This document shows, piece by piece, positions 14,008-41,413 of a stretch of 64,000 bases of DNA. The position numbers were made by a program, and so were the translations under genes. Location of the stretch: assembly GCA_017463485.1 (NCBI GenBank), contig JAFTPD010000002.1, positions 65,229-129,228 on the forward strand, given 5' to 3'. Source of the DNA: Clostridia bacterium. Its GTDB lineage: Bacteria > Bacillota > Clostridia > Oscillospirales > CAG-272. A model generated the notes under the pieces. It saw only the letters and a list, made by a program, of their open reading frames with translations. It did not search any database and had not been told where the DNA came from. Position 1 is the first letter of the stretch. Each line of letters opens with the position of its first letter.

Positions 14008-14073
14008 TTTGACTTGCATTTAAAAAGATGCGCTCCTGTTGCAAGTCGGGAGCGTAAAATTTTTACCTATTTA

Positions 14074-14089
14074 GTTAAGCAAACTTAAT
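14074..14089. promoter_or_regulatory. operator palindrome O2
   Basis: GTTAAGcaaaCTTAAt, a near copy of O1 82 bp downstream. GTTAAG half-sites also at 13898 and 13931. Confidence 0.5.
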
Positions 14090-14168
14090 TTGAAGGAAGG
14101 CAGGGTGGGAAGAAAGGTCAAAATATGAGCTATACGATATACGTTATCAGAAGAAAGGAAGTACTAAA

Positions 14169-14444: not shown

Positions 14445-14697
14445 GAGAAAACGCAAGACGGGTAGCGACTGCCTGAGCGATGTCAAAGCCTACGAGGAGC
14501 TGCTCCGCGTATACGGCGCGTGGCTTGGATATCTGTTGTCGCGTCTTGGTGAGGGCGAGCTTCGCGTTGATGTGTCCGAGATATCGAAAGGACTTGACGC
14601 CGCTTGCGTGAGCGCGTGGCGAGAGGGTGACGAATACGTCATCCGTGTGGATAAAAAGGATGTGGCTGACAATGGCGGAGAAAAAAAGGGGACTTGA
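14437..14697 (+). CDS. hypothetical phage protein (86 aa)
   Basis: ORF overlapping the neighbours by 8 nt and 26 nt. No motif recognised. Confidence 0.45.
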   Translation: MAERKRKTGSDCLSDVKAYEELLRVYGAWLGYLLSRLGEGELRVDVSEISKGLDAACVSAWREGDEYVIRVDKKDVADNGGEKKGT

Positions 14698-15058
14698 ATT
14701 TATTCCGTCGGATGTCGCCGCAGATGACGCAAGACGCAGTCGCCGCGTTGAGGATTCCATCTATAAGCGCGCACGCGGATATAAGGTAGCCGTCAAAAAG
14801 ACTTACAAGGTCAAGCGCGTAGAATACGATCCCGATACGGGTAAGAAAACGTCGGAGCGGGAGGAGCTGGCGACGGGCATTGACGAGGTACATATTCCCG
14901 CCGACGTCCGCGCAGGGGAGTATTGGCTCAAAAACCGTTCCCCCGAGCGTTGGAGTGAGCATCCCGCAGTACCCGACGCGGATGACGGTGATGATGGCGT
15001 GGGGATAATTCTGCTCCCCGACGTAGAGGCGTCTGACGGAGGAAAAAATGAAGCCTGA
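14672..15058 (+). CDS. terminase small subunit
   Basis: Position before TerL and the C-terminal motif PADVRAGEYWLKNRSPERW, typical of small terminases. Start at internal ATG (MAEKKRG). Confidence 0.7.
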   Translation: MAEKKRGLEFIPSDVAADDARRSRRVEDSIYKRARGYKVAVKKTYKVKRVEYDPDTGKKTSEREELATGIDEVHIPADVRAGEYWLKNRSPERWSEHPAVPDADDGDDGVGIILLPDVEASDGGKNEA

Positions 15059-16496
15059 CAAGGTGATCTGGTCGCCACAGCCCAAGCAGAGGATATTTAT
15101 GAGTCGGTGGGAGGACGAGGCACTGTACGGAGGTGCGGCGGGCGGAGGAAAGAGCGATTGCGCCATAGTTGAAGCCTTGCGGCAGGTAAACGTGCCGCAC
15201 TATCACGGGCTGATACTCCGCAAGACCTATCCGCAGCTCTCCGACATTATCAGCCGCTCCCACGAGCTGTACTCTCGCGCATTTCCCGAGGCAAGGTATA
15301 ACGACTCAAAGCACGTGTGGACTTTCCCAAGCGGCGCGAAGATATATTTCGGCTCGCTGCAGCACGCCTCAGACCGTTTCAATTATCAAGGCAAGAGATA
15401 CGACTTTATCGACTTTGACGAGCTGACGCAGTTTACAGCGGACGAGTATACGTACCTCTTTTCGCGAAACCGTCCAAACGGCCCCGGTACGCGGTGCTAT
15501 ATAAGGGCGCAGGCAAACCCCGGCGGTATCGGACACGGCTGGGTAAAGGCTCGGTTTATAACTCCCGCGCCTCCCATGACTACGATATGGGAGGACGTCA
15601 AGGTGCGCTTTCCTGATGGACGCGAGGAAAACCGCCGCCGTTCAAGGATCTTTGTGCCGTCCACCGTGTTTGACAATCAGAAGCTGCTGGAAAACGACCC
15701 CGAATATCTCACAAGCCTTGCGGCACTGCCCGAGGCAGAGAGAAACGCACTGCTTTACGGCAACTGGGACAGCTTTTCGGGGCAGGTCTTTACCGAGTGG
15801 CGCAACGATCCCGATCATTACCGTGACCGTGTGAACACTCACGTTATAGAGCCGTTTGCCATTCCCGAGAATTGGACGGTGTGGCGCGGATTTGACTGGG
15901 GATATACCCGCCCGTTTTCGGTGGGGTGGTACGCAGTGGACTGCGACCGACGGCTTTACCGCATCCGCGAGCTGTACGGCTGTGCGGCAGACTCAAACGG
16001 AAACGCTATCGCCAACCGCGGCGTTATGTGGACGGCTGACCGTGTGGCAAAGGAGATCCGCCGCATTGAAGCAGAGGACGTAAATCTGCGCGGCAGACAT
16101 ATTCACGGAATATGCGATCCAGCGGTGTTTGCCAGAAACGGCGGCGAGAGCATTGGCGAGATAATGGAACGCTCCGGCGTTTACTTCGACAAGGCTGACA
16201 ATACCCGAATCGCGGGCAAAAATCAGATACACAACCGCCTTGCTTTTGACGAATACGGCGTGCCTATGCTGTACGTCTTTTCGACCTGCAAGCACTTTAT
16301 CCGCACCGTACCCGAGCTTGTATACAGTCAGACCGACGTGGAGGATATCGACACCGACGGCGAGGATCACATCTATGACGAATTGAGATACATGTGCATG
16401 GAAAACCCCGTGGCGGCGCGAGAGGATAAAAGAAAGGAAAGTCTGTGTGAGCCGCCGCAATATATGCCGTATCTCGTGCGGCACGAATATTGTTGA
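15048..16496 (+). CDS. terminase large subunit
   Basis: Walker A (YGGAAGGGKSD), Walker B-like (FIDFDELTQF), C-terminal nuclease region (DTDGEDHIYDELRY). Confidence 0.9.
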   Translation: MKPDKVIWSPQPKQRIFMSRWEDEALYGGAAGGGKSDCAIVEALRQVNVPHYHGLILRKTYPQLSDIISRSHELYSRAFPEARYNDSKHVWTFPSGAKIYFGSLQHASDRFNYQGKRYDFIDFDELTQFTADEYTYLFSRNRPNGPGTRCYIRAQANPGGIGHGWVKARFITPAPPMTTIWEDVKVRFPDGREENRRRSRIFVPSTVFDNQKLLENDPEYLTSLAALPEAERNALLYGNWDSFSGQVFTEWRNDPDHYRDRVNTHVIEPFAIPENWTVWRGFDWGYTRPFSVGWYAVDCDRRLYRIRELYGCAADSNGNAIANRGVMWTADRVAKEIRRIEAEDVNLRGRHIHGICDPAVFARNGGESIGEIMERSGVYFDKADNTRIAGKNQIHNRLAFDEYGVPMLYVFSTCKHFIRTVPELVYSQTDVEDIDTDGEDHIYDELRYMCMENPVAAREDKRKESLCEPPQYMPYLVRHEYC

Positions 16497-16529
16497 CAGA
16501 AAAAAGAATTCGGAGGCAGGGTGGGAATT

Positions 16530-18146
16530 ATGAGGAATGGAGAAAATATGAGAAAAACAGAAACAGAAGGCTATGAAAATACCTGTGCCATAGGCAAGGT
16601 AGAGCTTCGGGAGGCGCTGGAGCTTTTGCAATCCTACAAGGAGGCAAAGCGGCGTACCGACGAGCGTATATGGGATGAGATGCAGTGGTGGCAGAAGCGC
16701 CACGACATCAAAGCTGCGGCAAGTGTCAGCGGGGTGCGTCCCGTGTCGGCGTGGCTGTTCAACAGCGTTTGCAACAAGCATGCGGATATGTGCGACAATA
16801 TCCCCGTCGCAAAGGCACTGCCCCGTGAAATGGGGGACGAGATGGCGGCGGATATGCTGTCCAAGATACTCCCCGTGATCTGCGAGAGATGCGGATTTGA
16901 AAAGACCTATTCGGACAATGCGTGGTACAAGCTGCGCCACGGAATGAGCGCGTGGGGCGTGTTCTGGAATTCACGGCTTGAAAATGGGCTTGGCGATATT
17001 GATATATGTCGTATGGACGTTATGGATATCTTCTGGGACGTGAGTGTTGCCGACATTCAGGACAGCCGCGGACTTTTTATCATCTCTGCCGATACTGCGG
17101 AGGGTGTGAGGAGCGCATATCCTCATTTCAAGGGCGAGTATAGGGACGGAGAGCGCGGCGACAGGGTAGAGGTCATTGACTGGTACTACAAGCGCCGCAT
17201 GCCCGACGGACGAAGTCTGCTTCACTATGCGAAAATATGCGGTGATGAGCTGCTTTACTCGTCCGAAAACGACCCTATGTTTGCAGATCGCGGCTGGTAC
17301 GAGCACGGAATGTACCCCGTGGTGCTGGACGTGCTTTTCCCCGACGTGAGTGGTAGCACGGGCTACGGATTCCTTGCTGTGGGCAGAAATCCGCAGGGCT
17401 ATATCGACGAGCTGGACGGCAATATTCTTGAATATGCCAACACCGTCAGCCGCGCAAGATACTGGGCAAAGCGCTCTCTTGGCATCAACGAGCGCGATTT
17501 CCTCAATCCCGATAAGCGTATTATCGAGGTGGAGGGAGATATCGACGACGAAAAGCTCCGTCAGATAAAGGTAGAGCCTATCGACTCAACGCTGACGTCC
17601 ATCCGCACTATGAAGATAGACGAGCTGAAGGAAACCACGGGCAACCGCGACGTGTCGCAGGGAAGCACCTCGGGAGGCGTTACTGCGGCATCTGCTATCG
17701 TTGCCCTGCAGGAGTCGGGCAATAAAGGAAGCCGCGACGTGATAATGGGAACTTACCGCGCCTACGTTTCGGTGATCACTCTCGTTATCGAGCTTATCCG
17801 CGAGTTTTACGACGGAGAGAGATGCTTCCGCATCTGCGGCGACGGCAGTAAGGCTAACCCCTATCAGTATCTGAACTATACCAACCGCGATCTCAAAACG
17901 GTGACGGTGGGCGTGGGTGCTGACGGCGAGGCGTTGTATTACCGTCCCGTATTTGATATCGAGGTCAAGGCAGAGCGCCGCGACCCTCTGACCCAAAGCG
18001 CGAGAAATCAGCTCATACTTCAGCTCTACGAGGCGGGAATGTTCGATCCCGAAAACAGCGCCGCCGCGTCGGTAGCCCTTGAATGTATGGATTTTGACGG
18101 AATCGACGCCGCCCGCGCGATGGTGCGTACTGGGGTACAGGTATGA
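16530..18146 (+). CDS. portal protein
   Basis: About 540 aa, directly after TerL, with a size and composition typical of portals. Exact start uncertain (GTG 16521, ATG 16530 or ATG 16548). Confidence 0.75.
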   Translation: MRNGENMRKTETEGYENTCAIGKVELREALELLQSYKEAKRRTDERIWDEMQWWQKRHDIKAAASVSGVRPVSAWLFNSVCNKHADMCDNIPVAKALPREMGDEMAADMLSKILPVICERCGFEKTYSDNAWYKLRHGMSAWGVFWNSRLENGLGDIDICRMDVMDIFWDVSVADIQDSRGLFIISADTAEGVRSAYPHFKGEYRDGERGDRVEVIDWYYKRRMPDGRSLLHYAKICGDELLYSSENDPMFADRGWYEHGMYPVVLDVLFPDVSGSTGYGFLAVGRNPQGYIDELDGNILEYANTVSRARYWAKRSLGINERDFLNPDKRIIEVEGDIDDEKLRQIKVEPIDSTLTSIRTMKIDELKETTGNRDVSQGSTSGGVTAASAIVALQESGNKGSRDVIMGTYRAYVSVITLVIELIREFYDGERCFRICGDGSKANPYQYLNYTNRDLKTVTVGVGADGEALYYRPVFDIEVKAERRDPLTQSARNQLILQLYEAGMFDPENSAAASVALECMDFDGIDAARAMVRTGVQV

Positions 18147-18448
18147 TAGACGTAAGCTATGCGGTAAACGCCGAGAGCGGAAAATGCCAAATTGAAGCGT
18201 GCGGTCACGCAGGCTGTGCCGAGCGCGGAGGAGACGTTATCTGCGCGGGAGTGTCCGCGCTCCTGTACGGATTTCTGTACTACCTCTCCGAAAAGCACGG
18301 CTCAAGTCTTGTGTGGCACGAGAGCGACGACAGCCTTTTTATGTGCTTCCCGTCGGAGAGCGCGGAGGCACTTGAGGTGATAACGGCATCTCTCAGACTT
18401 ATGTCGGACACCTATCCCGAATACGTTAGCTTGCAAGAAGGAAGGTAA
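18143..18448 (+). CDS. Prp-like (DUF464) cysteine protease, phage-encoded
   Basis: GHAGCAERGGDVICAGVSAL matches the Prp His/Cys catalytic dyad motif. Compare host Prp at 55679 (GHTGYGEEGGDVLCAAISAM). ATGA overlap with the portal gene. Confidence 0.8.
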   Translation: MIDVSYAVNAESGKCQIEACGHAGCAERGGDVICAGVSALLYGFLYYLSEKHGSSLVWHESDDSLFMCFPSESAEALEVITASLRLMSDTYPEYVSLQEGR

Positions 18449-18451
18449 AAT

Positions 18452-18928
18452 ATGGAACAAATCACAGAAACCGAAATCATAACGGAAAACGAACAGACAG
18501 AGCCGACCGCAGAGTCGACACTTGAGGTAACGGAGACGGAGGAGGTCATCAGTCAGCCGACAGAGCCGCAGACGCAGGGTATTGATATGGAGGAATTTAC
18601 CCGTTCACTCCTTGATGCTTACCCCGACGCAGACGTCGCTGACGAAAGACTGCTCGCCTACGCCGAAGGTCGCGAGCGACTCAGTGCCGTTGACCTTTAC
18701 CGAGCTTTGAATTTTGACAGCCTTGTGGCAAAGGCGGCAAACGCCGCCGCGCTGGAAGCCGAATCAAAGCTTATCGCACATATCCGTCTTTGCGGAATTC
18801 GCCCCGCAGAGAACGGAACAGACAGACAAAAGGGAGGAAAGAAAACCCCTCCCGTGGCAAGGCTCAGCCGCGCCGAGCGAGCAAAAATTGCCGCAAGAGC
18901 AGGTCGCGGAGAGCGCATTGAATTTTAA
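18452..18928 (+). CDS. putative scaffolding protein
   Basis: Highly acidic N-terminus, Ala-rich helical middle, basic C-terminus. Sits between the protease and the capsid gene. Confidence 0.6.
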   Translation: MEQITETEIITENEQTEPTAESTLEVTETEEVISQPTEPQTQGIDMEEFTRSLLDAYPDADVADERLLAYAEGRERLSAVDLYRALNFDSLVAKAANAAALEAESKLIAHIRLCGIRPAENGTDRQKGGKKTPPVARLSRAERAKIAARAGRGERIEF

Positions 18929-18946
18929 AAAAGAAAGGACAAAAAA

Positions 18947-20221
18947 ATGAACAACACAAACCTTTATATCGGCAAGGACTACATTCAGCATTTTGCTTCG
19001 GGTGAGCGTGTAATGGGAACTGCGGGCGTGTCCAATAACAACGCCGCTACCGTAACCCCTTACGAGGGCGAAGGACTTTCTGCCGAGATGAGAACCTATT
19101 ACAGCGACTATCTTATCGATAACGCAGAGCCTTATCTGGTGCACGATCTGTTCGCACAGAAGCACCGCATCCCCACGGGCGGCGGTAAGACTATCTCCTT
19201 CCGCAAGTACGATCCGCTGCCCAAGCGCACCTCTCCCATTGTAGAGGGCGTTACCCCTGACGGTCAGGATTTCCACGTTAGCGTAGTGGAGGCAACCGTT
19301 TCCCAGTACGGCGGATATATCGAGCTTACCGACCTACTTCTCATGACGGCGGTTGATAACAACCTCTGCATGGCAACCAAGCTGCTCGGTGCGCAGGCAG
19401 GACGTACCCTTGACACCATCTCGCGCGAGGTGCTTTCAGGCGGTACAAACGTTCAGTACGGCGAGAACGCCGTATCTGCGCGTCATCTGCTGGTGGGAGG
19501 CAAGGAGAGCGGCAACCATTACCTTACCGTTGACTGTATCCGCCGCGCGGTAAGATTCCTCAAGAGTCAGAATGCTGAGAAGATCGACGGCTCTTACGTG
19601 GCAATCATCCACCCCGACTGCACCTACGACCTTATGAACGATCCCAACTGGAAAACGCCCAATCAGTACGCCGATAGCAAGCGTATCTTCGAGGGCGAAA
19701 TCGGCAAGATCGAGGGCGTGCGCTTTATCGAGTCCAGCGAAGCCAAGATCTTCCACGCAGAGGATCTTTATGAAGGTCAGCGCACAGTCCCTGTTACCAA
19801 CGGCACAGCAGACGGAGGTCTTTATCTGCAGGGCAACACATTGCCTGACAGATGGATTATCGTTAACGGCAAACGCGTATATTACAGCGCGTCAAAGTGC
19901 TACACCGATTCCACCAAACAGAATACCGTCGATATGAGTGGAGCCAAAGTAAACGATATCGTCTATCCTGGTGAAGCAGGTGCAGAGGGCCGCGATGTAT
20001 ATTCCACCCTTATCATCGCGGATAACGCATACGGTACAACCGAAATTTCGGGGGGCGGACTTGAGCATATCGTAAAGCAACTCGGTAGCGCAGGAACGTC
20101 CGACCCGCTCAATCAGAGAGCAACCGTCGGTTGGAAGGCGTCCAAGGTCACTACTCGTCTTGTAGAGGCGTTTATGGTGAGAATCGAGACCACCTCCACC
20201 TTCGAATCGGGCAACAACTGA
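18947..20221 (+). CDS. major capsid protein (N4-gp56-like family)
   Basis: 424 aa. ISFRKYDPLP..EGVTPDG..VSQYGGYIELTDLL..LLGAQAGRTLD matches my memory of the N4-gp56 capsid family. N-terminal IQHF-AS motif. Confidence 0.8.
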   Translation: MNNTNLYIGKDYIQHFASGERVMGTAGVSNNNAATVTPYEGEGLSAEMRTYYSDYLIDNAEPYLVHDLFAQKHRIPTGGGKTISFRKYDPLPKRTSPIVEGVTPDGQDFHVSVVEATVSQYGGYIELTDLLLMTAVDNNLCMATKLLGAQAGRTLDTISREVLSGGTNVQYGENAVSARHLLVGGKESGNHYLTVDCIRRAVRFLKSQNAEKIDGSYVAIIHPDCTYDLMNDPNWKTPNQYADSKRIFEGEIGKIEGVRFIESSEAKIFHAEDLYEGQRTVPVTNGTADGGLYLQGNTLPDRWIIVNGKRVYYSASKCYTDSTKQNTVDMSGAKVNDIVYPGEAGAEGRDVYSTLIIADNAYGTTEISGGGLEHIVKQLGSAGTSDPLNQRATVGWKASKVTTRLVEAFMVRIETTSTFESGNN

Positions 20222-20277
20222 TAATTTATAAACACCCCGCCCTCGGGCGGGGGAGAGATAAAGAAAGGAAAAAGAAT

Positions 20278-20562
20278 ATGAGTACGAATACCGAAAATAA
20301 AAACAAGACCGTTTCCACTCCCGAGGACTACCTTGAGGAGCTGGTTTCCATAAAGCTTTTCCGCGACGGCGGACGTTATCGCGACAACGTGTACGTTGCT
20401 GTCAACGGACAGAACTGCATCATCAAGCGCGGTGAATGGGTAAAGGTAAAGCGCAAGTTTGCCATGGTGCTTGACGCCTCCGAAATTCAGGATATGAAGA
20501 CCGCGCAGATGATCGAAGCCGAGGAGAAAAAGTTCCAAACTGCCGAATCCAAGCTCGCCTGA
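20278..20562 (+). CDS. hypothetical phage head-associated protein (94 aa)
   Basis: ATG after AAAGGAAAAAG, inside listed ORF 20131..20562. No family recognised. Confidence 0.55.
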   Translation: MSTNTENKNKTVSTPEDYLEELVSIKLFRDGGRYRDNVYVAVNGQNCIIKRGEWVKVKRKFAMVLDASEIQDMKTAQMIEAEEKKFQTAESKLA

Positions 20563-20580
20563 CGGAGCGGGGGTGAGTTT

Positions 20581-20919
20581 ATGACTATCGGTAAATGTAT
20601 CGGCATAGCCGAAACCATAGCGCCCAACAAGATCGACAGAGAGCTGAAGCTCCGTTGGCTCAGCGAGCTTGAGGGCAAGATAGCCGTAGAGCTTTTCGAC
20701 GCTATGCCGGAGGAGCTGAACGAGTACAGCGCCGAGTGTGAGGACGGGGTGCAGCTTTACGTCCCGTTTCCGTTTGACCAGATATACTGGATGTACCTCG
20801 TGGCAATGCTTGACCTTGCCAATGGGGACAACGCAAGATACGGAAATTCCGCAGGCGCGTTCAATTCCGCCTTTGAGAGCTACGCCAAATGGGTATTGCG
20901 CAACGGAGTGACGAGGTAA
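20581..20919 (+). CDS. hypothetical phage protein (112 aa), possible head-tail connector
   Basis: Position after the capsid gene. No motif recognised. Confidence 0.5.
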   Translation: MTIGKCIGIAETIAPNKIDRELKLRWLSELEGKIAVELFDAMPEELNEYSAECEDGVQLYVPFPFDQIYWMYLVAMLDLANGDNARYGNSAGAFNSAFESYAKWVLRNGVTR

Positions 20920-20923
20920 GCCC

Positions 20924-21067
20924 ATGGACGTTCAGAAAATAACGCTCACCTCGGGCAGATTTATTCCTTCCCGCTCGGAGGACCTTGAAAAAAGGATAGA
21001 CGAGCTTGAAAAATATCTCATGCTGCTTACCGAAGAGCTTGAAAAGCGTTCAGATAACACACAGTAA
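20924..21067 (+). CDS. small coiled-coil ORF (47 aa)
   Basis: My own translation: MDVQKITLTSGRFIPSRSEDLEKRIDELEKYLMLLTEELEKRSDNTQ. It fills the gap between plus-strand phage genes and is below the ORF-track size cut-off. Confidence 0.35.
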   Translation: MDVQKITLTSGRFIPSRSEDLEKRIDELEKYLMLLTEELEKRSDNTQ

Positions 21068-21091
21068 GCAAAGAGGAAAGGAGAATGAGTA

Positions 21092-22666
21092 ATGTCAGGT
21101 AAAACAGCGGTATCCCTACCTTTGGGAATAGCCAAAGACTCAAACGTCAAAAAAAGGACGCAGACAAAATTCGGCGGACTTTGCCGCGAGAGAATGGCGA
21201 GCGGTGAGGACATCAGCTATATGCTCAATACGACGTGCTGTGATCATCCGAGAATATCCGCGCGAGAGAGGAGAAGGCTGTCCTCTGCGAGTGCCGTGGC
21301 GGGAAGCACGTCGTATACCGTCGCAGTGTCGGATAAGGTATACGTAGTCGAGGGCGACAAGCTCTACATTTCTGAAAACGGTGCACGTACCGAATGCTGT
21401 ACTCTGTCATCCGAATCGGATAAAAAGATAATCTGCTACGGTAACGACCTTGTGATCCTGCCCGATTATATCCATTATCAGTCGCCCTTTGGATATACTA
21501 AAAGTATGCGTATTTCAACAGACGTTATCAAAGCAACAATAAGCGGCAACTCGCTTGTTGCAGAGTCCGTCGATTTTGAGGATATTGGCTTCAGAATGGG
21601 CGACGGTGTAACAGTTACCTCAGTGGCAAGCACGCTGTCCAGTCATGTGTTCACGGTAAACTCTACCGTTTATTACGTAGACGGAAACACCTTGCTTATA
21701 GACGGAGTTTTTCCGAGCGACGGGGAATATGCGATTCGCGTAAGACGTGACATACCCTCACTTACCCACGCCGTATGCTGGGGCGAGCGAATGTACGGCA
21801 CGTCGGGAAGCAACGTCAACATTTCGGAAGAAGGAAATATCTATAACTGGAAAGGGAAAAGGGGACTTGACAGCGACCCCGTGACTATGCCGTCAGTCTC
21901 CGTCGGCAGCTTTACCGCTTGCGCCGAATGGAACGGTTATATTGTCTTTTTTAAGGAAGGCTCGATATGCAAGCTGCTTGGCAATAAGGCGTCAAGCTAC
22001 GTGTTGTCAGAGGTAACGGCGCCGGGTATTCCCGAGGGTGGACATAAAACGCTTGTTTCTCTCGGCGGCGCGCTCTACTACTGCGGCACAATGGGAGTTT
22101 ATAAGTACGACGGTACGCATCCCAAGCGGATAGATCAGGGCGCGCTTCCCGACGGCTTGAAGGCGACGGCAGCCGCCACTGACGGAGAAAGATATTATCT
22201 TGCGGCAAACGGTAAAGTGTACGTTTACGACCCCGTGCGACAACTATGGAGCGCAGAATCGGGCGCGGCTATCGTCAGTATGGCAGGCAGAGCGGGCGAG
22301 GTATATATGTTGACGTCGGGCGGATTGCTGTTTGCGTCGGGCGATACGGCAGAGGGCGGACTTGAGGACGCGACCGACGCATGGCTGTCCTTTGGATACG
22401 ACGACGGAGGCGCGGCAGAAAAGAAATCCCTCCTATCATTGAGTTTAACCGTCCGATTGGGAGAGGGAGCTGACCTCGAGGTGCTCGCAGAATTCGACGA
22501 GGACGGCGAGCAGGTGCTTGTCGGAAACAGCAGAGGACGTGGCGCGTGGGAAAATCTCACCTATATGTGTCCGCCCAATATCTGCGGTGGATTCCGAATA
22601 CATCTTCATGCCCGCGGTAGCTTTACGCTCGCGTCGCTGACGCGCAATTACCGCATCATAAGCTGA
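21092..22666 (+). CDS. 524-aa beta-rich phage structural protein of unknown role
   Basis: GAGGAAAGGAGA RBS. Recurrent G-x-hydrophobic-Y motifs (KVYVVEGDKLYI, GALYYCGTMGVYKYDG, GERYYLAANGKVYVYD, GEVYMLTSGGLLFA) suggest a propeller or beta-sandwich. Confidence 0.6.
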   Translation: MSGKTAVSLPLGIAKDSNVKKRTQTKFGGLCRERMASGEDISYMLNTTCCDHPRISARERRRLSSASAVAGSTSYTVAVSDKVYVVEGDKLYISENGARTECCTLSSESDKKIICYGNDLVILPDYIHYQSPFGYTKSMRISTDVIKATISGNSLVAESVDFEDIGFRMGDGVTVTSVASTLSSHVFTVNSTVYYVDGNTLLIDGVFPSDGEYAIRVRRDIPSLTHAVCWGERMYGTSGSNVNISEEGNIYNWKGKRGLDSDPVTMPSVSVGSFTACAEWNGYIVFFKEGSICKLLGNKASSYVLSEVTAPGIPEGGHKTLVSLGGALYYCGTMGVYKYDGTHPKRIDQGALPDGLKATAAATDGERYYLAANGKVYVYDPVRQLWSAESGAAIVSMAGRAGEVYMLTSGGLLFASGDTAEGGLEDATDAWLSFGYDDGGAAEKKSLLSLSLTVRLGEGADLEVLAEFDEDGEQVLVGNSRGRGAWENLTYMCPPNICGGFRIHLHARGSFTLASLTRNYRIIS

Positions 22667-22688
22667 AGCACGCACAGGAGGAACAGAC

Positions 22689-23009
22689 ATGAATTCGCAC
22701 GACGGACCGAGAGGGTACAATCATCATTCGATCGACAGAGAATATTCCGCCGAGCTTTGCGACGAGCGACACGACAGGCTGGATTTTGATATCCGCCATG
22801 TGGAGGAAAAGCTTGAAAAGCTGGAGATCTGCACCGTAAAGCTGACGGATATGATCGAGCGGCACGATAAAATGATAGACGCCCAGCAGGAAAAGATAAG
22901 CACCCTTGAAAAGCATCCGGGGGCACAGCTTCAAAAGATACTGTGGTATGCCATCAGCGCCGTGGCAGGCGCTCTGGCGGTTGCCCTTACGGATCATATC
23001 GCGCTTTGA
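22689..23009 (+). CDS. XhlA-like membrane protein (lysis-associated)
   Basis: N-terminal coiled coil (HVEEKLEKLEICTVKLTDMIERHDKMIDAQQEKISTLEK) and a single C-terminal TM (ILWYAISAVAGALAVAL), as in XhlA-family proteins. Confidence 0.6.
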   Translation: MNSHDGPRGYNHHSIDREYSAELCDERHDRLDFDIRHVEEKLEKLEICTVKLTDMIERHDKMIDAQQEKISTLEKHPGAQLQKILWYAISAVAGALAVALTDHIAL

Positions 23010-23067
23010 CGCACAAAGCCCCGTATCGCGGAAATCTCTGCGGTACGGGGCTGAAAGAGCAGCTTTG

Positions 23068-23136
23068 CGGAGTGAAATCCGCCTGCGGCGGATTATCGTT
23101 GCTTTTCGCTTTGCGAAAAGCGTCATTTCATTGAAA
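23068..23136. repeat. copy A, 5' module of the two-copy intergenic element
   Basis: GGAGTGAAAT + hairpin + ATTATCGTTGCTTTTCGCTTTGCGAAAAGCGTCATTTCATTGAAA. Matches 28170-28312. Confidence 0.7.
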
Positions 23137-23269
23137 CGGGCGACCGCAGGTCGCCCCTACGGTATAAAAATCTTTGCCTGAAAACTACTGAAAGCATCTT
23201 ATTTTCCACGTAGGGGCGAATTGCTTGCTCCTCCCGCTACGGAAAAATTTTTGATTTTACACGTATAAC

Positions 23270-23406
23270 GGACAGTCGGGGACGCCTGTCCCTACAATTT
23301 TGAAAAGATTTTCGTTATTGAATAACAGAAAGGCAATATAAACCTTTTGGTGTTAAAACAACGAAAAATTCTAATCATTTGTAGGGACAGGCGTCCCCGA
23401 CTGTCC
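23270..23406. repeat. MITE-like unit bounded by a perfect 28-bp inverted repeat
   Basis: GGACAGTCGGGGACGCCTGTCCCTACAA (23270-23297) and its exact reverse complement (23379-23406) flank 81 AT-rich nt. The core recurs at 43795. Confidence 0.7.
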
Positions 23407-23488
23407 GGAACATCGAATAAATTATAGAGATGGTCTTGACCGTTTGGCGCGGTTAAAAGAATAAACAATAAATAATAAATAATAAATA

Positions 23489-23647
23489 CCACAGTGGGTA
23501 AGGGTCCCACGGGGGTTATAGAGATGGTTTTTGTTGTCATCATACGAAACAAATCCAAACCAAAAAATACTTCAAGCAAGTTCTTTGGGATCAAACCCTT
23601 TCTCGAAAGAAAGGGTTTGCAGGGCGCGGGACAGAGTCCCGCATATA
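23489..23647. repeat. copy A, 3' module of the two-copy intergenic element
   Basis: Collinear with 28315-28468. Three hairpins at 23494-23510, 23592-23619 and 23626-23642. Confidence 0.7.
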
Positions 23648-23661
23648 CTAAAAATCATACA

Positions 23662-23692
23662 ATAAAAATCAAGGGCTTCTAACGAAGCCCCT
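23662..23692 (-). terminator. typA terminator
   Basis: GGGCTTC-taac-GAAGCCC, followed on the minus strand by TTGATTTTTATT. Confidence 0.65.
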
Positions 23693-27945: not shown

Positions 27946-28161
27946 ATGATAATGGACAGAATTGCGCTCATTATTTCTATAATCGGTGCGCTTAACTGGG
28001 GTAGCATAGGACTTTTCCAGTTTGACCTTGTCGCATGGATCTGCGGTGGTATGGACAGCCTTGCGGCGCGCATTATTTATACAGTTGTCGCTCTTGCGGG
28101 AATTTGGTGTATTTCGCTTCTTTTCCGCACCAGAGAGGCTTTTGACTCTATTGAGGACTGA
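27946..28161 (+). CDS. DUF378 family small membrane protein
   Basis: IIGALNWGSIGLFQFDLVA motif, two TM segments. Confidence 0.8.
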   Translation: MIMDRIALIISIIGALNWGSIGLFQFDLVAWICGGMDSLAARIIYTVVALAGIWCISLLFRTREAFDSIED

Positions 28162-28169
28162 CCGCTTCG

Positions 28170-28468
28170 CGGAGTGAAATCGTGCTTCACACGGTGAAAT
28201 CACTTTGTGATGGAATTCGTCCTTCGGACGAGTGAAATGCGCCGTGCAGATTTTCTGCACGGCGCATTATCGTTGCTTTTTGCGTGGCGAAAAGCGTCCA
28301 TTTTCAATTAAATATCACAGTGGGTAAGGTACCCACGGGGGTTATAGAGACGGCTCTTGTTGTAACCATCTAAACAAATTTAAACAAAAACAAATTGCTG
28401 TAAAGTTCTTTGATCCAAACTTTCTTTCAAGAAAGTTTGGTGGGGTGTGGGGCAAAGCCCCACATATA
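28170..28468. repeat. copy B (uninterrupted) of the two-copy intergenic element
   Basis: Fills the whole DUF378-rarA gap. GTGAAAT-hairpin units (28174-28265), then ATTATCGTTGC... (28266-28312), then the three-hairpin module (28315-28468). Confidence 0.7.
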
Positions 28469-29698
28469 TTACTTTTTCTTGATAGCATCCCAATACGCCT
28501 TGGCGGCTTGTTCGGTCTTGTTTTCGCCGGGAATGTAGTATTTTCTATCCTTGAGGCTATGCGGCAAATACTGTTGATCTACATAGTGATTTGGATAGTC
28601 GTGGGGATAGACGTAGCCCTTGAAAAGCGGGCTTTTGAGGTGAGTGGGGATATCCTTGCCGAGTCCTGCCTTGACATCCTCCGAAGCGGCGGCAAGGGCA
28701 AGGTAGGCGGAGTTGGATTTCGGAGCAGTGGCAAGCAGGAGAGCGGCGTTGATGAGGGGGATGCGCGCCTCGGGAAGCCCGAGCTCGCGCGCGGACATAC
28801 ATAGCGAATGAACGATAGCCGCCACCTGCGGGTAAGCAAGTCCGATATCCTCGCTGGCAATAACCTGAAGCCTGCGGCAAAGGGAAATGATCTCGCCACA
28901 TTCCAGCATCTTTGCAACGTAGAAGGCAGTCGCGTCGGGATCGGAGCCGCGAATGGACTTTTGCAGGCAGCCGAGCAGGTCGTAATGCACGTCGTCGTCA
29001 AAGTTGCCGACACCGCTGTCAAAGTCGGAAACGCATTCCTTGGTAATAGCAAAATTTGTCTGCTCCGACGTCGCATAATACGTGTTTTCAAGAAGCACCA
29101 CGGCGCGTCGCACATCGCCGCCCGATAAGCCTGCGATCTTCAACGCCACGCCCTCGTCAAGCGTTACAGATGAAGCGTAAGTGGAGTTGAGATAGTCAAG
29201 CGCGCGGTAAAGCATGGGCAGTATGCTCTTTGGTAAAACGGGCTTGAATTCAAACAGTGAGGAACGCGAAATTATCGCGTTGTGAACGTAAAAATGCGGG
29301 TTTTCGGTGGTGGACGCGATAAGCGTTATGCGCCCGTCCTCCATGTATTCCAGCAGTGATTGCTGCTGCTTTTTATTGAAGTATTGGATCTCGTCGAGAT
29401 ACAAAAGAATACCGTTTGAGCCGAACAGCCCACCCGTTTCCGAAAGTATGCTTTTGACGTCGGCAAGGGAGGCGGTGGTGGCGTTGAGCTTGTGAAACTC
29501 CATCCCCGACATTTTAGCAATAATTGACGCAGAAGTAGTCTTGCCCGTGCCGGGAGGGCCGAAGAATATCATGTTAGTAACTCTGCCCGCAGACAGCATA
29601 CGGCGAAGCACTCCGCGTGGACCGAACAAATGCTCCTGACCTACGATCTCGTCAATATTTGACGGTCTTATCGCATCAGCAAGAGGGGATTGAACCAT
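28469..29698 (-). CDS. rarA: replication-associated recombination protein A (AAA+ ATPase)
   Basis: FFGPPGTGKTT Walker A, LYLDEIQYFNK Walker B, C-terminal MgsA domain. Start at Met after AAAGGAG. Confidence 0.9.
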   Translation of the reverse strand: MVQSPLADAIRPSNIDEIVGQEHLFGPRGVLRRMLSAGRVTNMIFFGPPGTGKTTSASIIAKMSGMEFHKLNATTASLADVKSILSETGGLFGSNGILLYLDEIQYFNKKQQQSLLEYMEDGRITLIASTTENPHFYVHNAIISRSSLFEFKPVLPKSILPMLYRALDYLNSTYASSVTLDEGVALKIAGLSGGDVRRAVVLLENTYYATSEQTNFAITKECVSDFDSGVGNFDDDVHYDLLGCLQKSIRGSDPDATAFYVAKMLECGEIISLCRRLQVIASEDIGLAYPQVAAIVHSLCMSARELGLPEARIPLINAALLLATAPKSNSAYLALAAASEDVKAGLGKDIPTHLKSPLFKGYVYPHDYPNHYVDQQYLPHSLKDRKYYIPGENKTEQAAKAYWDAIKKK

Positions 29699-36549: not shown

Positions 36550-39500
36550 ATGACTATCATCAAAAAGCGATCGAGCGGTAATATAAATACCGCCGCAGAC
36601 GACAGAATAGGGTTCCTGCAGGAGCGCGTGCTGTCACGCAAGGGAATAATAGGCTGCTCAAACGGATACACCGTCGCCCGATATGAAAACGGAAAGATCT
36701 TCTACGCGGGCGAGAACAGATGGGGACAGGAGGAATGTACCGGATGGACGGACGTTATCAGCATCTCCGTCGCCCATGAGTACGTGCTTGGACTTTTGTC
36801 CGACGGAACTGTCCGCGCGGCAGGCTACGATTCTCACGGACAGCTTCAGATAAGCCGCTTTTCCTGCGCGCGCAGTGTGTCTGCGGGACGCTACCATTCT
36901 GCGGCTATCATACAGAACGGACGCGTGGTATGTGCAGGAGATAACAGCCATGGTCAGTGTGATACCTCCGAGTGGGAGGACGTGTGTGACGTTGTTTGCG
37001 GCAATGATTTCACTCTGGGACTTACGCAAAACGGAAAGGTTCTGTACGCGGGTGGCAGTCGCGCCATGCGAGCAAGATTTTCCCGTTGGGAGAAGATCGC
37101 GGGACTTTTTGCCGACGTTTCGGGCGAGCGGATATACGGTATCCGCGCTGACGGAACGGTGGTGTCAAATGCCTACCTTCCCGCTGAGGTAAAGAAATGG
37201 AAGAACCTTGTGTATCTTTCAGTCGCCGATGGAGTTTATGCCGGAATCACCCTTGGTGGAACTGTCAACGTCCATGGGAATGGCGACCTTGAAAAAATAC
37301 TGTCAAATAAGGCAGAGGAGTTCGTCACCGTGTCTATGTCGGGCGAGCACTCCGCCGCTGTCAACAGCACAGGACAGATATTGACCGTGGGGGACAATCA
37401 CTTCGGTCAGTGCGATACACGTCACCAAAAGCCGCTGTTTGACGACTTTACGGAGCTGTGCGCCAATATGCAGGCGGCTCGCCGCCGTCGCCGTCAGCGC
37501 GAGCTTGAATATAAAAAGCGTGAGTGCGAGGCGGAAAGATTTTCCCGCCGTATGGCTTGCAGTGAGAGAATAAGCGTGGGTATCTCCGCCATGGGCAGAG
37601 TTTATACCACGGGTAGCTTCAAGGACGTGAAATCATGGTCGGACGTTACCACCATAAGCTGTGGCAACGCACACATCCTCGCCCTTCATTCGGACGGAAC
37701 GGTCAGTGCGTCCGGAAACAATGTAGAGGGCTGTACTGCCGTGTCCGAATGGCGCGGTATAGTTGAGATACTTGCGGGTAAATATCACTCGCTTGCTCTT
37801 ACCTCGGACGGCAGAGTGCTTTTTACGGGACAGAATTACAATAATCAGGGCGACGTGAGCTCTTGGAGCGGTATCAAGCATATTTTCGGAACGGATACCT
37901 ATACTCTCGGATTGCGTGTCGATGGCAGTGTGATATCTGCTGGACGCGGACTCCCATGCTCTCGCGACGTGCTTGAGGGCGACGAATGGAAAAATATCAT
38001 TCATATAGTCCCCACTGACAGTCATATCGCCGCATTGCGCGCCGACGGTACGGTAGTCACTGCGGGTAACGCTTCGTATATGAGCCGTTTTACGGGATGC
38101 ACCAACGATTGGCAGGGGGTCAAATCCATAGCCGCAGGGAACGGCTTTACCGCAGGACTTTGCTACGGCGGCAGAGTGCTTGCTGTGGGTGAGAATGCCT
38201 TCGGTCAGTGTGATACTCAAAATTGGAGTAACGTTGTGCGCATATCAGCAGGACGCACGTCGCTTGTCGGACTTTGCGCCGACGGCAAGGTCTATTCTGC
38301 GGGCGCTCAACGCATAAGCGCAGAGCAGGCAAGTCGAATGTTCGATTCTCCCAATCTTATACGAGGGGAGAGGCAGGGAGTCAATTATCTTCGCTGTAAT
38401 ACCGATATGCTGTCGGATATCGTGGCGATAACGTGCGCCCCCGAGCATACCCTTGCCATTGATAAGGGAGGACAGATGTTTGCGCTCGGACTTGACGGCG
38501 ACGGTCAGTGCGCGGTGTCCGCGTTCACAATGTTCAGTAACATATCCCAGTACGATAAGGGCGTGGGCTATTATAAGAGCCGCGCTCACGAGCAAGAAAT
38601 ACTTGTGAGTGATGAAAATACCGCCGAGGCTGACAGCGCTGACACAGCACACGGCGAGATAAAGAGAACGGCACACGAAAATCTTATTTACGATTCAAAT
38701 AGATATACGAGCATGATCGCGGGCGGCGACGACCACGTTACCGTGGCAGACGACGAGGGAAACGTGCGCTCTTACTCATTCTCGGGCGGCGTGATCATTA
38801 CAGAGCCGTTGACGGGTAAAAGACCGATAAAGGTAGTTGCAGGCAAGGCGCACAGCGCAGTGCTTTACGAAAACGGCGACGTGCGCTTGCGTGAATCCTT
38901 TGATTCGCAGCTCAATCCTGCAATGGTGCTTCCTCCGTGGTATAATTCCGTCGGACTTGTAAAGGCTGTTGATATCTGCGCGGGTGACAGACATACCGCA
39001 GTATTGCTGGAGGACGGCACTGTCAGAGCTATGGGAAGCAATAAATTCGGTCAGTGTGACGTGTCTGCTCTGACGGGCATAAAAGCTCTTGGCGCAGGCT
39101 CGGCGCATACGGCGGGACTTACGGAGAGCGGCGAGGTGATCGCAGTCGGCTCTAAAAATCGCGAGATCGCGATAAAGGCGCGCTCTGTGGCTCACGCTCC
39201 CGTTTGGAATCCTTGCCAGACACAGAGATGGAGTGACGTTGCAAGCATTGAATGTACTGCCGATATCACCCTCGGTATCAAGAACGACGGCGACGTGCTG
39301 GCGGTTGGAGGCAATAACTTCGGTCAGTGCCGCACTGGATTTTGGCATAACGTTATCGACGTTAAAACCTCGGGCAGGCATACCGCCGCTTTGCGTGCCG
39401 ACGGTCGCGTGGAGGCTATCGGATGCAACGAGCGCGGAGAATGTAATACCTCCGAATGGAAAAACATCATAATGCTCGCCCTGCGCAGCGGTGTAACCTA

Positions 39501-40656
39501 CGGTCTGCGTGCCGATGGACAGCTTTCTGTGGCGGGATATTGCGATTGCAATACTAATATCGGGGTCGCTTGGAGAGCTGTGTTCTGCTTTGGCGTAAAT
39601 CTTGTGCTGCTCAGCGCCGAGGGATATCTGTATTATCATAGGCTCGGCAGCAAAAAAGAATTGTCGCGTATAGAAAATATGCGAGTATTTACCCCTTTGA
39701 CCGAGAACGGTATCATGAACCGTGTCGGTAAGGTCTCGGGAATGACAAACGTCTTGAATGTCGCCAAAGAGGCAAAGCAGAGGATCGCCGTGGGACTTAC
39801 CCACGCCCTCAAGCTACGTCCCGACGGTCACGTGCGCGCCTACGGCTCAAACGTGGCAGGGCAGTGCGACGCACGTGGCTGGGAGGATATAGCTTCTCTG
39901 TCCTCCGGATTGTATTTCAGTGTGGGACTTACAGCGAGCGGTAAGATATGCTCGTCGGGTAAGGATACCGTAATGTCCACGGACGGCAATAATACCTCGC
40001 GCTCCATAGCGGACGAGCTGAATTTCCTGCTTTACAGCGTGGATATCAGCCTACCGCAGGATAGCGGCGGGGACGACGAGCTGGATGCAACCTATACGCT
40101 CAACGACAGTCAGCTTCGCTACGTCAGCCTGTCTGCAGGTGCTAATTTCGCCGCGGCGGTAAGAAGTGACGGGCGCGTGTTCGGAGTGGGCGACAACAGC
40201 TACGGTCAGTGTGATCTTAACCGAATAAGAAACGCCGCCGAGGTGGCTTGCGGTACTCACCATACGGCAGTGCTACTGCACGACGGTAGAGTGGTATGTT
40301 CGGGCGATAACAGCTTTGGTCAGTGCGATACGCAGTGGTGGCGCAATATCGTTATGCTATCCTGCGGAGAAAATCATACCGTTGGACTCAAATCGGACGG
40401 TTCCGTCGTTGCAGTGGGTGACAACGGACTTTCACAGTGTGACGTGTCGGATATTGCCATCGGCGTGTCCGTGACGGCTATGCCCGAGGCAACTCTTGTA
40501 ATTCTGCCCGGCGGTCGCGTGGTGATACGCGGCGGCAGAGGAGTAATGAATAAATTCGTGGCGTCCCTGCGCGAAACAGTTGCACTTGACGCCTGCGAAT
40601 ACCGTATCGGTGCGCTGTCCTCGGACGGCAAGCTGCATCTCTCGGACGAAAAATAA
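36550..40656 (+). CDS. giant RCC1-repeat (multi beta-propeller) protein, 1368 aa
   Basis: At least 15 copies of the RCC1 hairpin signature (GDNSHGQCD, GDNHFGQCD, GENAFGQCD, GSNKFGQCD, GGNNFGQCR, GDNSYGQCD, GDNSFGQCD...). No N-terminal hydrophobic signal. ATG follows AGAGGTGAGAGG. Confidence 0.85.
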   Translation: MTIIKKRSSGNINTAADDRIGFLQERVLSRKGIIGCSNGYTVARYENGKIFYAGENRWGQEECTGWTDVISISVAHEYVLGLLSDGTVRAAGYDSHGQLQISRFSCARSVSAGRYHSAAIIQNGRVVCAGDNSHGQCDTSEWEDVCDVVCGNDFTLGLTQNGKVLYAGGSRAMRARFSRWEKIAGLFADVSGERIYGIRADGTVVSNAYLPAEVKKWKNLVYLSVADGVYAGITLGGTVNVHGNGDLEKILSNKAEEFVTVSMSGEHSAAVNSTGQILTVGDNHFGQCDTRHQKPLFDDFTELCANMQAARRRRRQRELEYKKRECEAERFSRRMACSERISVGISAMGRVYTTGSFKDVKSWSDVTTISCGNAHILALHSDGTVSASGNNVEGCTAVSEWRGIVEILAGKYHSLALTSDGRVLFTGQNYNNQGDVSSWSGIKHIFGTDTYTLGLRVDGSVISAGRGLPCSRDVLEGDEWKNIIHIVPTDSHIAALRADGTVVTAGNASYMSRFTGCTNDWQGVKSIAAGNGFTAGLCYGGRVLAVGENAFGQCDTQNWSNVVRISAGRTSLVGLCADGKVYSAGAQRISAEQASRMFDSPNLIRGERQGVNYLRCNTDMLSDIVAITCAPEHTLAIDKGGQMFALGLDGDGQCAVSAFTMFSNISQYDKGVGYYKSRAHEQEILVSDENTAEADSADTAHGEIKRTAHENLIYDSNRYTSMIAGGDDHVTVADDEGNVRSYSFSGGVIITEPLTGKRPIKVVAGKAHSAVLYENGDVRLRESFDSQLNPAMVLPPWYNSVGLVKAVDICAGDRHTAVLLEDGTVRAMGSNKFGQCDVSALTGIKALGAGSAHTAGLTESGEVIAVGSKNREIAIKARSVAHAPVWNPCQTQRWSDVASIECTADITLGIKNDGDVLAVGGNNFGQCRTGFWHNVIDVKTSGRHTAALRADGRVEAIGCNERGECNTSEWKNIIMLALRSGVTYGLRADGQLSVAGYCDCNTNIGVAWRAVFCFGVNLVLLSAEGYLYYHRLGSKKELSRIENMRVFTPLTENGIMNRVGKVSGMTNVLNVAKEAKQRIAVGLTHALKLRPDGHVRAYGSNVAGQCDARGWEDIASLSSGLYFSVGLTASGKICSSGKDTVMSTDGNNTSRSIADELNFLLYSVDISLPQDSGGDDELDATYTLNDSQLRYVSLSAGANFAAAVRSDGRVFGVGDNSYGQCDLNRIRNAAEVACGTHHTAVLLHDGRVVCSGDNSFGQCDTQWWRNIVMLSCGENHTVGLKSDGSVVAVGDNGLSQCDVSDIAIGVSVTAMPEATLVILPGGRVVIRGGRGVMNKFVASLRETVALDACEYRIGALSSDGKLHLSDEK

Positions 40657-40681
40657 AAAATACATATTATCAAAGGAAAAA

Positions 40682-41413
40682 ATGACTAAAATGAACAGCG
40701 AAATTGCAGTGCTTATGGCGGCGGGACTCGGAACTCGTATGCAGCCCCTGACTAATACCACTCCCAAGCCCCTCATAAAGGTACACGGTACTCCCATGAT
40801 CGAAACCGTCATAGACGGACTTCTCCGCCGCGGAGTGTCCAAAATATACGTCGTTGTCGGCTATAAGGGAGAGCAGTTTGCATACCTCTCCGATAAGTAT
40901 GACAACGTGGAATTTATCCAAAACAACGACTATATGACGAAAAATAATATCTCTTCAATCTATGCTGCAAGAGGCGTTATGGGTAAGGGCGATTGCTTCG
41001 TCTGCGAGGCAGACCTGTATCTTTCCGATCCCTCCATTTTCGATAAGGAAAGCTTTGAGGGTGAGTCCTGCTACTTCGGAAAAATGGTAAAGGGACATTC
41101 GGACGACTGGGTGTTTGACCTTGATGGGGAAGGATATATCAGCCGCGTCGGTAAATACGGAGAGGATACCTATAATATGGTCGGTGTGTCCTACTTCAAG
41201 CAAGAGGATGCACAGAAAATAGCCGATTACGTTACCGAGGAGTACGCAAAAGAGGAGAGCTCACAGCTTTTCTGGGACGACGTCGTCAATATGCACCTTG
41301 ATACACTCCGCCTGACCGTACATCCCGTCAAAGCAGGACAGATAACCGAAATCGACTCGGTTGATGAGCTTGCGGCGATAGATGGGTCGTATGCCTGCGT
41401 GTTGGCAAAATAA
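40682..41413 (+). CDS. LicC-like sugar/alcohol-phosphate nucleotidyltransferase
   Basis: LMAAGLGTRMQPLT..PKPLI nucleotidyltransferase signature. Size and layout resemble CTP:phosphocholine cytidylyltransferase. Confidence 0.7.
   Translation: MTKMNSEIAVLMAAGLGTRMQPLTNTTPKPLIKVHGTPMIETVIDGLLRRGVSKIYVVVGYKGEQFAYLSDKYDNVEFIQNNDYMTKNNISSIYAARGVMGKGDCFVCEADLYLSDPSIFDKESFEGESCYFGKMVKGHSDDWVFDLDGEGYISRVGKYGEDTYNMVGVSYFKQEDAQKIADYVTEEYAKEESSQLFWDDVVNMHLDTLRLTVHPVKAGQITEIDSVDELAAIDGSYACVLAK

Follow-up and report, generated by a model that had tools for sequence, protein, structure and literature searches.

The 64,000-nt stretch of DNA analysed here (hereafter the window) comes from a Clostridia bacterium of the GTDB lineage CAG-272 (GenBank assembly GCA_017463485.1, contig JAFTPD010000002.1, positions 65,229 to 129,228 of the forward strand). 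It carries two copies of a structured intergenic repeat, namely copy A beside typA and copy B in the gap between the convergent genes DUF378 and rarA. Copy B starts at 28162, directly past the DUF378 stop codon (TGA), rather than at 28170 as given in a preliminary description of this DNA, and it ends at 28468 against the rarA stop codon. The repeat reads 5' to 3' on the + strand as a hairpin array, an optional block-1 hairpin, and a core of 152–156 nt, in which the local hairpins are P1, P3, and P4 and two unpaired stretches are invariant. In copy B, the array comprised five short hairpins that were unrelated to one another in sequence, with (A)GTGAAAT linkers between them. The features of copy B were as follows, with the core scored by the covariance model R1 introduced below.

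28162..28265, + strand: Gut-1-type hairpin array, read from the sequence and from sub-threshold RF01706 matches.
28162-28172, + strand: array hairpin 1 (CCGCTTCGCGG), then linker AGTGAAAT.
28181-28193, + strand: array hairpin 2, then linker GTGAAAT.
28201-28209, + strand: array hairpin 3, then GGAATT.
28218-28230, + strand: array hairpin 4, then linker AGTGAAAT.
28239-28265, + strand: array hairpin 5, resembling the DUF378 terminator hairpin of relatives.
28266..28315, + strand: block 1, made up of ATTATCGTTGC, a hairpin, and a T/A-rich linker ending in the conserved AAATATC edge motif.
28274-28296, + strand: block-1 hairpin (TGCTTTTTGCGTGGCGAAAAGCG).
28316..28468, + strand: core copy B, 3' half of type I (R1 177.4 bits, E 8e-42).
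28320-28336, + strand: P1, GTGGGT/ACCCAC with loop AAGGn.
From 28336, + strand: invariant CGGGGGTTATAGAGA.
28340-28347 with 28360-28367, + strand: weak P2, a predicted pairing.
28368-28402, + strand: A/C-rich spacer.
28403-28412, + strand: invariant AAGTTCTTTG.
28415-28440, + strand: P3 palindrome (26–28 bp across the family).
28445-28465, + strand: P4, a GC-rich hairpin.

The end motif CATATA of core B abutted the rarA stop codon (28469-28471). The invariant GGGGGTTATAGAGA directly followed P1 in the core, and the 5' edge of the core (AAATATCAC) was the reverse complement of the array linker. Block 1 was also found before the grpE-dnaK copies described below. The hairpin at 28239-28265 looks like an ancestral DUF378 terminator hairpin that is present in relatives too, a likeness that was read by eye and was left unaligned by MAFFT. 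In a blastn search against plasmids and phages, the only match was an exact one of 22–23 nt between P4 of copy B (28440-28462) and small mobilisable plasmids of the Bacillus thuringiensis/cereus group (E about 0.3–0.9), which we judged to be due to chance.

Copy A has the same modules in two parts, and its features were as follows.

23068..23124, + strand: front modules, namely one array unit (CGGAGTGAAAT and hairpin 23079-23091), ATTATCGTTGC, and the block-1 hairpin 23100-23122.
23415..23441, + strand: degenerate core fragment without P1 (GAATAAAT-TATAGAGATGGTCTTGACC), upstream of core A, read from the sequence.
23483..23650, + strand: core copy A, 3' half of type II (R1 152.1 bits, E 1.3e-35).
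23494-23510, + strand: P1.
23578-23587, + strand: AAGTTCTTTG.
23592-23619, + strand: P3.
23626-23642, + strand: P4, then CATATAC, then CTAAAA.
23671-23692, - strand: strong typA terminator (terminator scan), between core A and typA.

The two copies were collinear, as had been proposed, with 28160-28475 aligning with 23058-23140 plus 23480-23655 in a three-way alignment. Two shared blocks, ATTATCGTTGCTTTTnGCnTnGCGAAAAGCGTC (23092-23124 and 28266-28298) and GTGGGTAAGGnnCCCACGGGGGTTATAGAG (23494-23523 and 28320-28349), each had exactly two matches in the window and none in 100 shuffles, and the window repeat search gave identities of 87% and 90% for the two. The ~350 nt dividing copy A (23137-23488) consisted mainly of an unrelated palindrome insertion of the REPIN type (paired repetitive extragenic palindromic, REP, sequences), followed by the P1-less core fragment. 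The insertion (23137-23420) had GTAGGG heads and contained an inverted pair of palindromes (GCAGGTCGCCCCTACG / CGTAGGGGCGAATTGC) at 23146-23224 and a 139-nt palindrome at 23269-23407, whose 65-nt arms were 77% complementary. A single hairpin related to these palindromes was found at 43793-43822, and the insertion was missing at the orthologous locus of the sister species (L013). These features suggest that a REP-like system, with its REP-associated tyrosine transposase (RAYT), is active in the window's genome. Partial duplicates of the first ~20 nt of the core were found upstream of several arrays (L050 7204-7226, L002 ~2062-2075, and the L013 typA copy; L-numbers denote loci fetched for comparison).

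Further copies were found with the covariance model R1, which was built from five core copies and run on loci reached via neighbouring proteins and viral-contig scans, and with pattern scans. In total, ten distinct core copies were found at six loci, with R1 scores of 124–177 bits; as ~0.4 Mb of clade DNA was covered, the copy counts are lower bounds. We refer to the window's species as W, to a SIG628-like species (RarA 95% identical to that of W) as S, and to a third species (GrpE 93% identical) as Y. W had at least three copies and S at least five. A scan of a genome collection with the core pattern gave three more copies, all in the Oscillospiraceae metagenome-assembled genome (MAG) SIG628. 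The loci were as follows.

DUF378 / rarA, convergent genes: copies in W (copy B) and S (L013), found with R1.
Upstream gene / typA, convergent: copies in W (copy A) and S (L013), the upstream gene in S being an MFS gene.
grpE then dnaK: copies in W, S, and Y (L001, L048, L050), sense.
DUF370/remB then gyrB: copy in S (L002), sense.
pyrB / carA: copy in S (L003/L008), antisense to both genes and inside the operon.
Phage contig: copy L021/L024, sense, 50 nt upstream of the rep gene.

Both window copies lie 3' of a minus-strand housekeeping gene, as had been noted. This was not a trait of the family, because other copies were located between co-directional genes, antisense in an operon, or in a phage, and the link to housekeeping genes is thus a coincidence of the two window copies. 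The same variety of contexts, in either orientation, and the strong terminator between typA and copy A argue against a small RNA (sRNA) derived from the 3' untranslated regions of typA and rarA. The element followed the direction of the upstream gene at five of the six loci, and its edges coincided with stop codons at 28162 (past the DUF378 TGA), at 28468 (at the rarA stop codon), and at L002 2000 (past a TAG). At the typA locus of the sister species (L013 16295-16313), the MFS gene extends across the first array hairpin as far as a TGA in the GAGTGAAAT linker, and so the element supplies the last six codons and the stop codon of this gene, which is altogether missing in the window's species.

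Such positions would suit a domesticated cis-acting RNA, serving as an mRNA 3'-end stabiliser, processing site, or transcription insulator on any transcript running through, and E. coli REP or pneumococcal BOX sequences can act in cis in this way. The place of the element between grpE and dnaK in three species and the stability of its hairpins on both strands also fit this explanation. However, the orientation bias was not significant (one-sided P ~0.11), close relatives manage without the element at the same loci, and a mere exonuclease block needs no invariant unpaired sequence. We consider a cis-acting RNA decidedly unlikely.

In the best reading of these sequences, the repeat appears to be limited to a narrow clade of gut Oscillospiraceae and a single phage of theirs. 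Two core-pattern scans of the JGI metagenome collection gave no matches, the lineage evidently not being in the collection as scanned; protein look-ups led to the JGI samples that carry the repeat. In viral contigs, a relaxed core pattern and a triple-GTGAAAT pattern gave only unrelated matches, and R1 was negative on them. Six-frame pseudo-peptides of the core as queries yielded one spurious open reading frame (ORF), P0001, which is the pyrB-carA copy. Public gene calls place this 82-aa 'protein' on the minus strand of that core (L003 4849-5000 / L008 1044-1292). Simple repeats of AATTGAAAATTGA(A/G)AAT were present just upstream of several cores (L024 5790-5812, L050 7176-7203, L003 4770-4805, L013 ~11440-11470) and also at an empty rarA site (L017 ~11240-11270); such repeats may be a favoured target or else an optional fourth module.

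Core B folded much better than its shuffles on either strand, with z-scores of −4.1 (+ strand) and −5.8 (− strand). In an alignment of the ten copies, which was fitted to the R1 model and hence favours structure, standard pairs occupied 94.3% of cells, against 86.7% in shuffles (0/500 reached the observed value) and 40–48% with slid partners. Changes on both sides were found in 11 pairs, mostly in P3 and P4. Double changes affected 6/12 pairs of P3 and 3/9 pairs of P4, where one pair is U-A in some copies and C-G in others in each of the two sequence types described below. P1 hardly varied; the phage copy has a single U-A to A-U swap. The support for P2 consisted of G-U pairs and one-sided changes only, and P2 is not established. 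Compensatory changes preserve the pairing of P3 and P4, and with ten distinct copies the proposed structured repeat family was confirmed. RNAalifold recovered P1 and P4 from plain MAFFT alignments on either strand, with consensus energies of −23.9 and −22.4 kcal/mol on the two strands; the long-range helices that it also predicted were an artefact of misaligned P3 types. Some A-C mismatches on the + strand (P1 of S-rarA and P4 of L002) are G-U pairs on the − strand. As both strands fold alike and these mismatches would pair on the − strand, either strand may be the active one, and a DNA-level role of the palindromes is as compatible with the data as an RNA role. CGGGGGUUAUAGAGA and AAGUUCUUUG were invariant in all ten core copies.

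The 3' halves of the cores fell into two sequence types. Type I was found in W-B, W-grpE, S-grpE, and pyrB, and type II in W-A, S-typA, Y-grpE, and S-rarA. W-B and S-rarA were 85% identical in the 5' half and 58% in the 3' half, and W-grpE and Y-grpE were 84% and 63% identical, respectively. The types thus cut across positional orthology, indicating that copies exchange segments, and the 3' halves appear to have been swapped among copies by recombination. The stems quoted in the preliminary description were right, both the terminal one (GCGGGAC/GTCCCGC in A versus GTGGGGC/GCCCCAC in B) and the middle one (CAAACCCTTTCT/AGAAAGGGTTTG in A versus CCAAACTTTC/GAAAGTTTGG in B). Given the split into types, however, many of the compensatory differences between A and B represent one contrast of type I with type II and not independent events, and what stands of that claim is the pair flips, which recur inside type I and inside type II.

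Orthologous sites without the element were found in the nearest outgroups. The DUF378-rarA gap was 81 nt in L017 (RarA 94% identical) and 76 nt in L019 (85%), consisting in both of the shared terminator and a short AT-rich stretch, and the grpE-dnaK spacer was 46 nt in L173, the closest outgroup (GrpE 82% identical). These empty sites at rarA and grpE-dnaK indicated that the element was gained in a narrow clade at no fewer than two loci, and with them the earlier suggestion of a novel, transposable-element-like repeat family survives. As in miniature inverted-repeat transposable elements (MITEs), there were several dispersed non-coding copies of less than 500 nt, present or absent at orthologous sites. 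The core was better conserved than the surrounding intergenic DNA between W and Y.

The reading that we favour, with about as much doubt as confidence, is that of a clade-restricted, modular, structure-constrained, non-autonomous interspersed repeat, similar to MITE or BOX elements, that is passively transcribed. The element would spread as non-autonomous mobile DNA, with its hairpins recognised by a trans-acting enzyme. The best partner candidate would be an HUH-type nuclease, for example the rolling-circle Rep encoded beside the phage copy, and this rep gene was the sole enzyme gene adjoining any copy. After insertion, the element would be transcribed passively with its neighbours, and its hairpins could act as 3'-end or intercistronic RNA structures.

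Several observations weigh against this interpretation. Alignment of filled and empty sites showed at most a possible ATAC target-site duplication, at grpE, and the flanks were AT-rich and diverged. Both ends of the element are hairpins, which were alike in copy B (ATAT..GTGGG..CCCAC) but not in copy A or most others, and no terminal inverted repeats were definable among the copies compared. No transposase was seen adjoining any copy in the ~0.4 Mb of clade DNA covered. Core paralogues were 66–88% identical and no near-identical copies occurred at two loci, so there was no sign of recent jumping, and the same loci have kept the element in two or three species. Two long invariant unpaired stretches are more typical of a sequence that is read by a protein or that base-pairs than of a decaying selfish element. 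The link to an HUH enzyme comes from adjacency in one phage and a motif likeness.

The hairpin array has a counterpart in Rfam. The layout of Gut-1 (RF01706), with tandem short hairpins and GUGAAAU linkers, was seen in the window array (28162-28265), where the Gut-1 model fell short of its cut-off of 50 bits, with 30.8 bits for 28139-28205 and 19.7 bits for 28208-28267. The array of species Y (L050 7237-7309, linkers GUGAUAU) scored 53.1 bits (E 8e-10), above the cut-off, showing that the family link is real and that the window copy is a diverged member; the score in L002 was 21.5 bits, under the cut-off. In the window and 52 fetched loci, every occurrence of the motif CGGAGTGAWAT lay immediately 5' of a core copy, on the strand of that core, from which the array appears to belong to the element and to occur only next to a core. 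Each copy had 0–5 array units with variable hairpin sequences and GUGA(A/U)AU linkers. At grpE, there were no units in W and S and four in Y, and at rarA there were ~4–5 in W and none in S. As unit number varied between orthologous copies, the array is the most dynamic module. The preliminary description had found no match to a known RNA family, which held for the core but not for the 5' third, where the GGAGTGAAAT-hairpin repeats are of the Gut-1 type. No Rfam family matched the core at the gathering score in the whole window, and at E values up to 10 only hairpin-level noise was obtained (rnk_pseudo 24, wcaG 18, and SmY 18 bits), as was the case for the core regions of L050 and L002. Judged by these searches, the core is probably a structured family that has not been described before.

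Array and core could together be the product of paralogous non-coding RNA (ncRNA) genes, forming one + strand structured RNA that acts in trans, with the phage having its own copy and the invariant stretches being functional sites. Gut-1 has been rated a likely non-cis-regulatory RNA, found only in human-gut metagenome reads (Weinberg et al. 2010, PMC2864571). The compensatory changes in P3 and P4 and the one in P1, the invariance of the two unpaired stretches, the conservation of the core above its intergenic surroundings, and the many G-U pairs of the weak P2, which exist on the + strand only, all fit such genes. However, crude consensus scans detected no sigma-70-type promoter before either window copy and no good intrinsic terminator, which also disfavours the independent sRNA gene proposed earlier. 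There was no U-tract after P4, and P1 with UGUGAUAUUU on the minus strand formed only a weak terminator; in the terminator scan of the window copies, weak terminator-like sites were limited to block 1 (+ strand) and P1 (− strand). P2 showed no double compensatory change beyond chance, some mismatches are resolved only on the other strand, and outgroups lack the element at the same loci. A trans-acting ncRNA family is a possible but unlikely explanation.

Part of the core might also be a small translated ORF or leader peptide, with GGGGG, 8 nt, and an AUG opening the sequence M-x-(L/F)-V-V-(I/T)-I. The Shine-Dalgarno-like GGGGG stood 8 nt before the AUG in 9/10 copies, and the first seven codons were similar, with synonymous-looking GUN wobble. 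In copy B, however, ACG replaces the AUG; the frame ends after 6, 7, 14, or ~45–52 codons and is shifted by indels; its hydrophobic part has too few residues for a membrane toxin; and the downstream genes are unrelated or convergent. With the start lost in copy B and lengths of 6–52 codons, the ORF is not conserved, so that a toxin-antitoxin system or a leader peptide was rejected, and translation of the core is barely credible.

The phage contig that carries a core copy is 37.9 kb long and encodes terS, terL, a P22-type portal, and a capsid protein, and in L024 the core takes up the intergenic space immediately before rep (6001-6918). The Rep protein matched phrog_3584 "replication initiation protein" (E 2.9e-48) and Pfam PF23343 (32 bits, cut-off 27.8). 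HUH-type motifs (ITLTF, HPHLLM, YLTKQ) were read in it, and it is predicted to be an HUH rolling-circle initiator. Its homologues, with 27–33% identity, were found in phages of Clostridium, Latilactobacillus, and Butyrivibrio and in phage-plasmids of C. perfringens. A search of loci of Rep relatives returned the same phage only, comparison with solved structures detected no relative by sequence, and no Rep homologue was found in the window or any fetched host locus.

In the phage, the core could be the nick-and-bind region of Rep, that is, a double-strand origin. The chromosomal copies could then respond to Rep, whether as dispersed remnants of origins or as sites serving the capsid-encoding island next to copy A. 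The position of the core directly upstream of a predicted HUH initiator gene agrees with this proposal, as does the non-coding DNA upstream of homologous reps in phages PhiS63, Saumur, and Arawn. In Arawn, this DNA contains CTTGATA, the classical nick motif of pC194/phiX-like Reps; it was not found in the intergenic region of the phage studied here. The invariant GTTCTTT with the CCAAAC palindrome that follows it presumably resembles the nick region of Ff gene II, but a likeness of seven nucleotides could be chance and is a lead rather than evidence. The phage core was 66–77% identical to the other copies and was not more central to the family, the host loci and window gave no Rep homologue, and we know of no precedent for several dispersed origins in a host chromosome. 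An origin module is, in our view, improbable, even though rolling-circle Rep origins combine a nick site with palindromic binding sites (PMC5714925).

The island (13185-23009, 9.8 kb) lies just left of copy A, has no integrase, rep, or tail genes, and encodes an S24/CI-type repressor, a terS-like protein, terL, a P22-type portal, a Prp protease, a capsid protein, and proteins of 524 and 106 aa. Its terL, portal, and capsid were 57%, 39%, and 43% identical to those of the core-carrying phage. These shared genes and the end of the island next to copy A would favour the origin module; the island is common to the sister species, and there an MFS gene parts it from the typA copy, which counts against that module. 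Judging from its gene content, the island may be a capsid-forming satellite or an element like a gene-transfer agent. Copies A and B were rejected as attL and attR of a prophage, because the genes between them are housekeeping genes and the island's left edge carries no copy.

A further proposal, which we regard as highly improbable, is that the core (GTTCTTT and P3) and the hairpin-GUGAAAU units serve an HUH nuclease (for example, the phage Rep) as substrates, with the chromosomal copies as Rep-responsive initiator or terminator sites. If so, upon infection, DNA next to or between same-orientation copies could be rolled out as single-stranded DNA circles, or amplified in place and packaged. 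The candidate cargo would be typA-lysS-DUF378 between copies A and B, which are 4.8 kb apart, or the integrase-less island, and this would be a new phage- or satellite-driven route for mobilising host genes and a DNA-level function for Gut-1.

Under the favoured reading of a non-autonomous interspersed repeat, the core family offers a clean insertion polymorphism and is otherwise one more clade-restricted intergenic repeat, while the phage-borne core beside an HUH rep gene provides a concrete enzyme candidate. Gut-1, known since 2010 from metagenome reads alone, gains its first host lineage (gut Oscillospiraceae MAGs) and its first genomic context. It may be better to study this motif within a dispersing element, and perhaps on the level of DNA, than as a stand-alone RNA. 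The repeat is also a source of spurious ORFs in metagenome annotation, such as P0001, and its description is therefore useful to annotators.

Two other repeats were observed in the window. Diverged coding repeats at 36900-40700 (units ending in GGTCAGTG(C/T)GAT, in 114-nt multiples) lie in a very large RCC1/WD40-like repeat protein, which has 1368 aa in the sister species. An 18-nt tandem repeat at 60650-60770 (GCnGCACCCGCnCCTGCn) would encode an Ala/Pro-rich low-complexity stretch.

Among known systems, Gut-1 resembles the window array in having at least three short variable hairpins with GUGAAAU linkers on the same strand. As published, it is a free-standing orphan RNA whose organism is not known, whereas the present array forms the 5' part of a larger element, with 0–5 units per copy that are always followed by the 152-nt core. 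Remnants of a group II intron, retron, omega RNA, or bridge RNA were rejected, there being no Rfam signal or partner gene. HUH rolling-circle origins (pC194/phiX174 type and the Ff intergenic region) resemble the phage core in being a hairpin-rich block directly upstream of rep, with a palindrome near a pyrimidine-rich invariant motif (compare GTTCTTT). Unlike such origins, the phage intergenic region lacks CTTGATA, and the host chromosome has dispersed copies of the core with no rep gene nearby.

REP sequences and REPINs are mobilised by RAYT (HUH Y1) transposases, and the hairpins of one family share their sequence and a GTAG head. They resemble the array in their short hairpins behind a conserved short motif, their clustering right after stop codons, and a possible HUH partner. 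Unlike in REP sequences, the array hairpins differ freely and the head is GUGAAAU. The true GTAGGG REPINs of the window's genome are a separate family (23146-23407). Some bacterial MITEs have conserved RNA-like folds, such as bcr1 of the Bacillus cereus group and Correia/NEMIS of Neisseria. They carry terminal inverted repeats together with a fixed target-site duplication (TTTAT, TA); in the repeat here, neither was demonstrable. Like it, they are ~150 nt long, intergenic, and present or absent at orthologous sites, and compensatory changes maintain their fold. BOX elements of Streptococcus pneumoniae have the structure boxA-boxB(n)-boxC and are modular, hairpin-rich, and located near genes, without coding capacity or a known transposase. 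The repeat here differs from them in showing no sequence similarity, in its conserved 7-nt linkers with free hairpin sequence, in its seemingly low copy number, and in having one phage copy, and it shares with them a modular, intergenic, multi-copy organisation in which one module, in the middle or at the front, varies in number.

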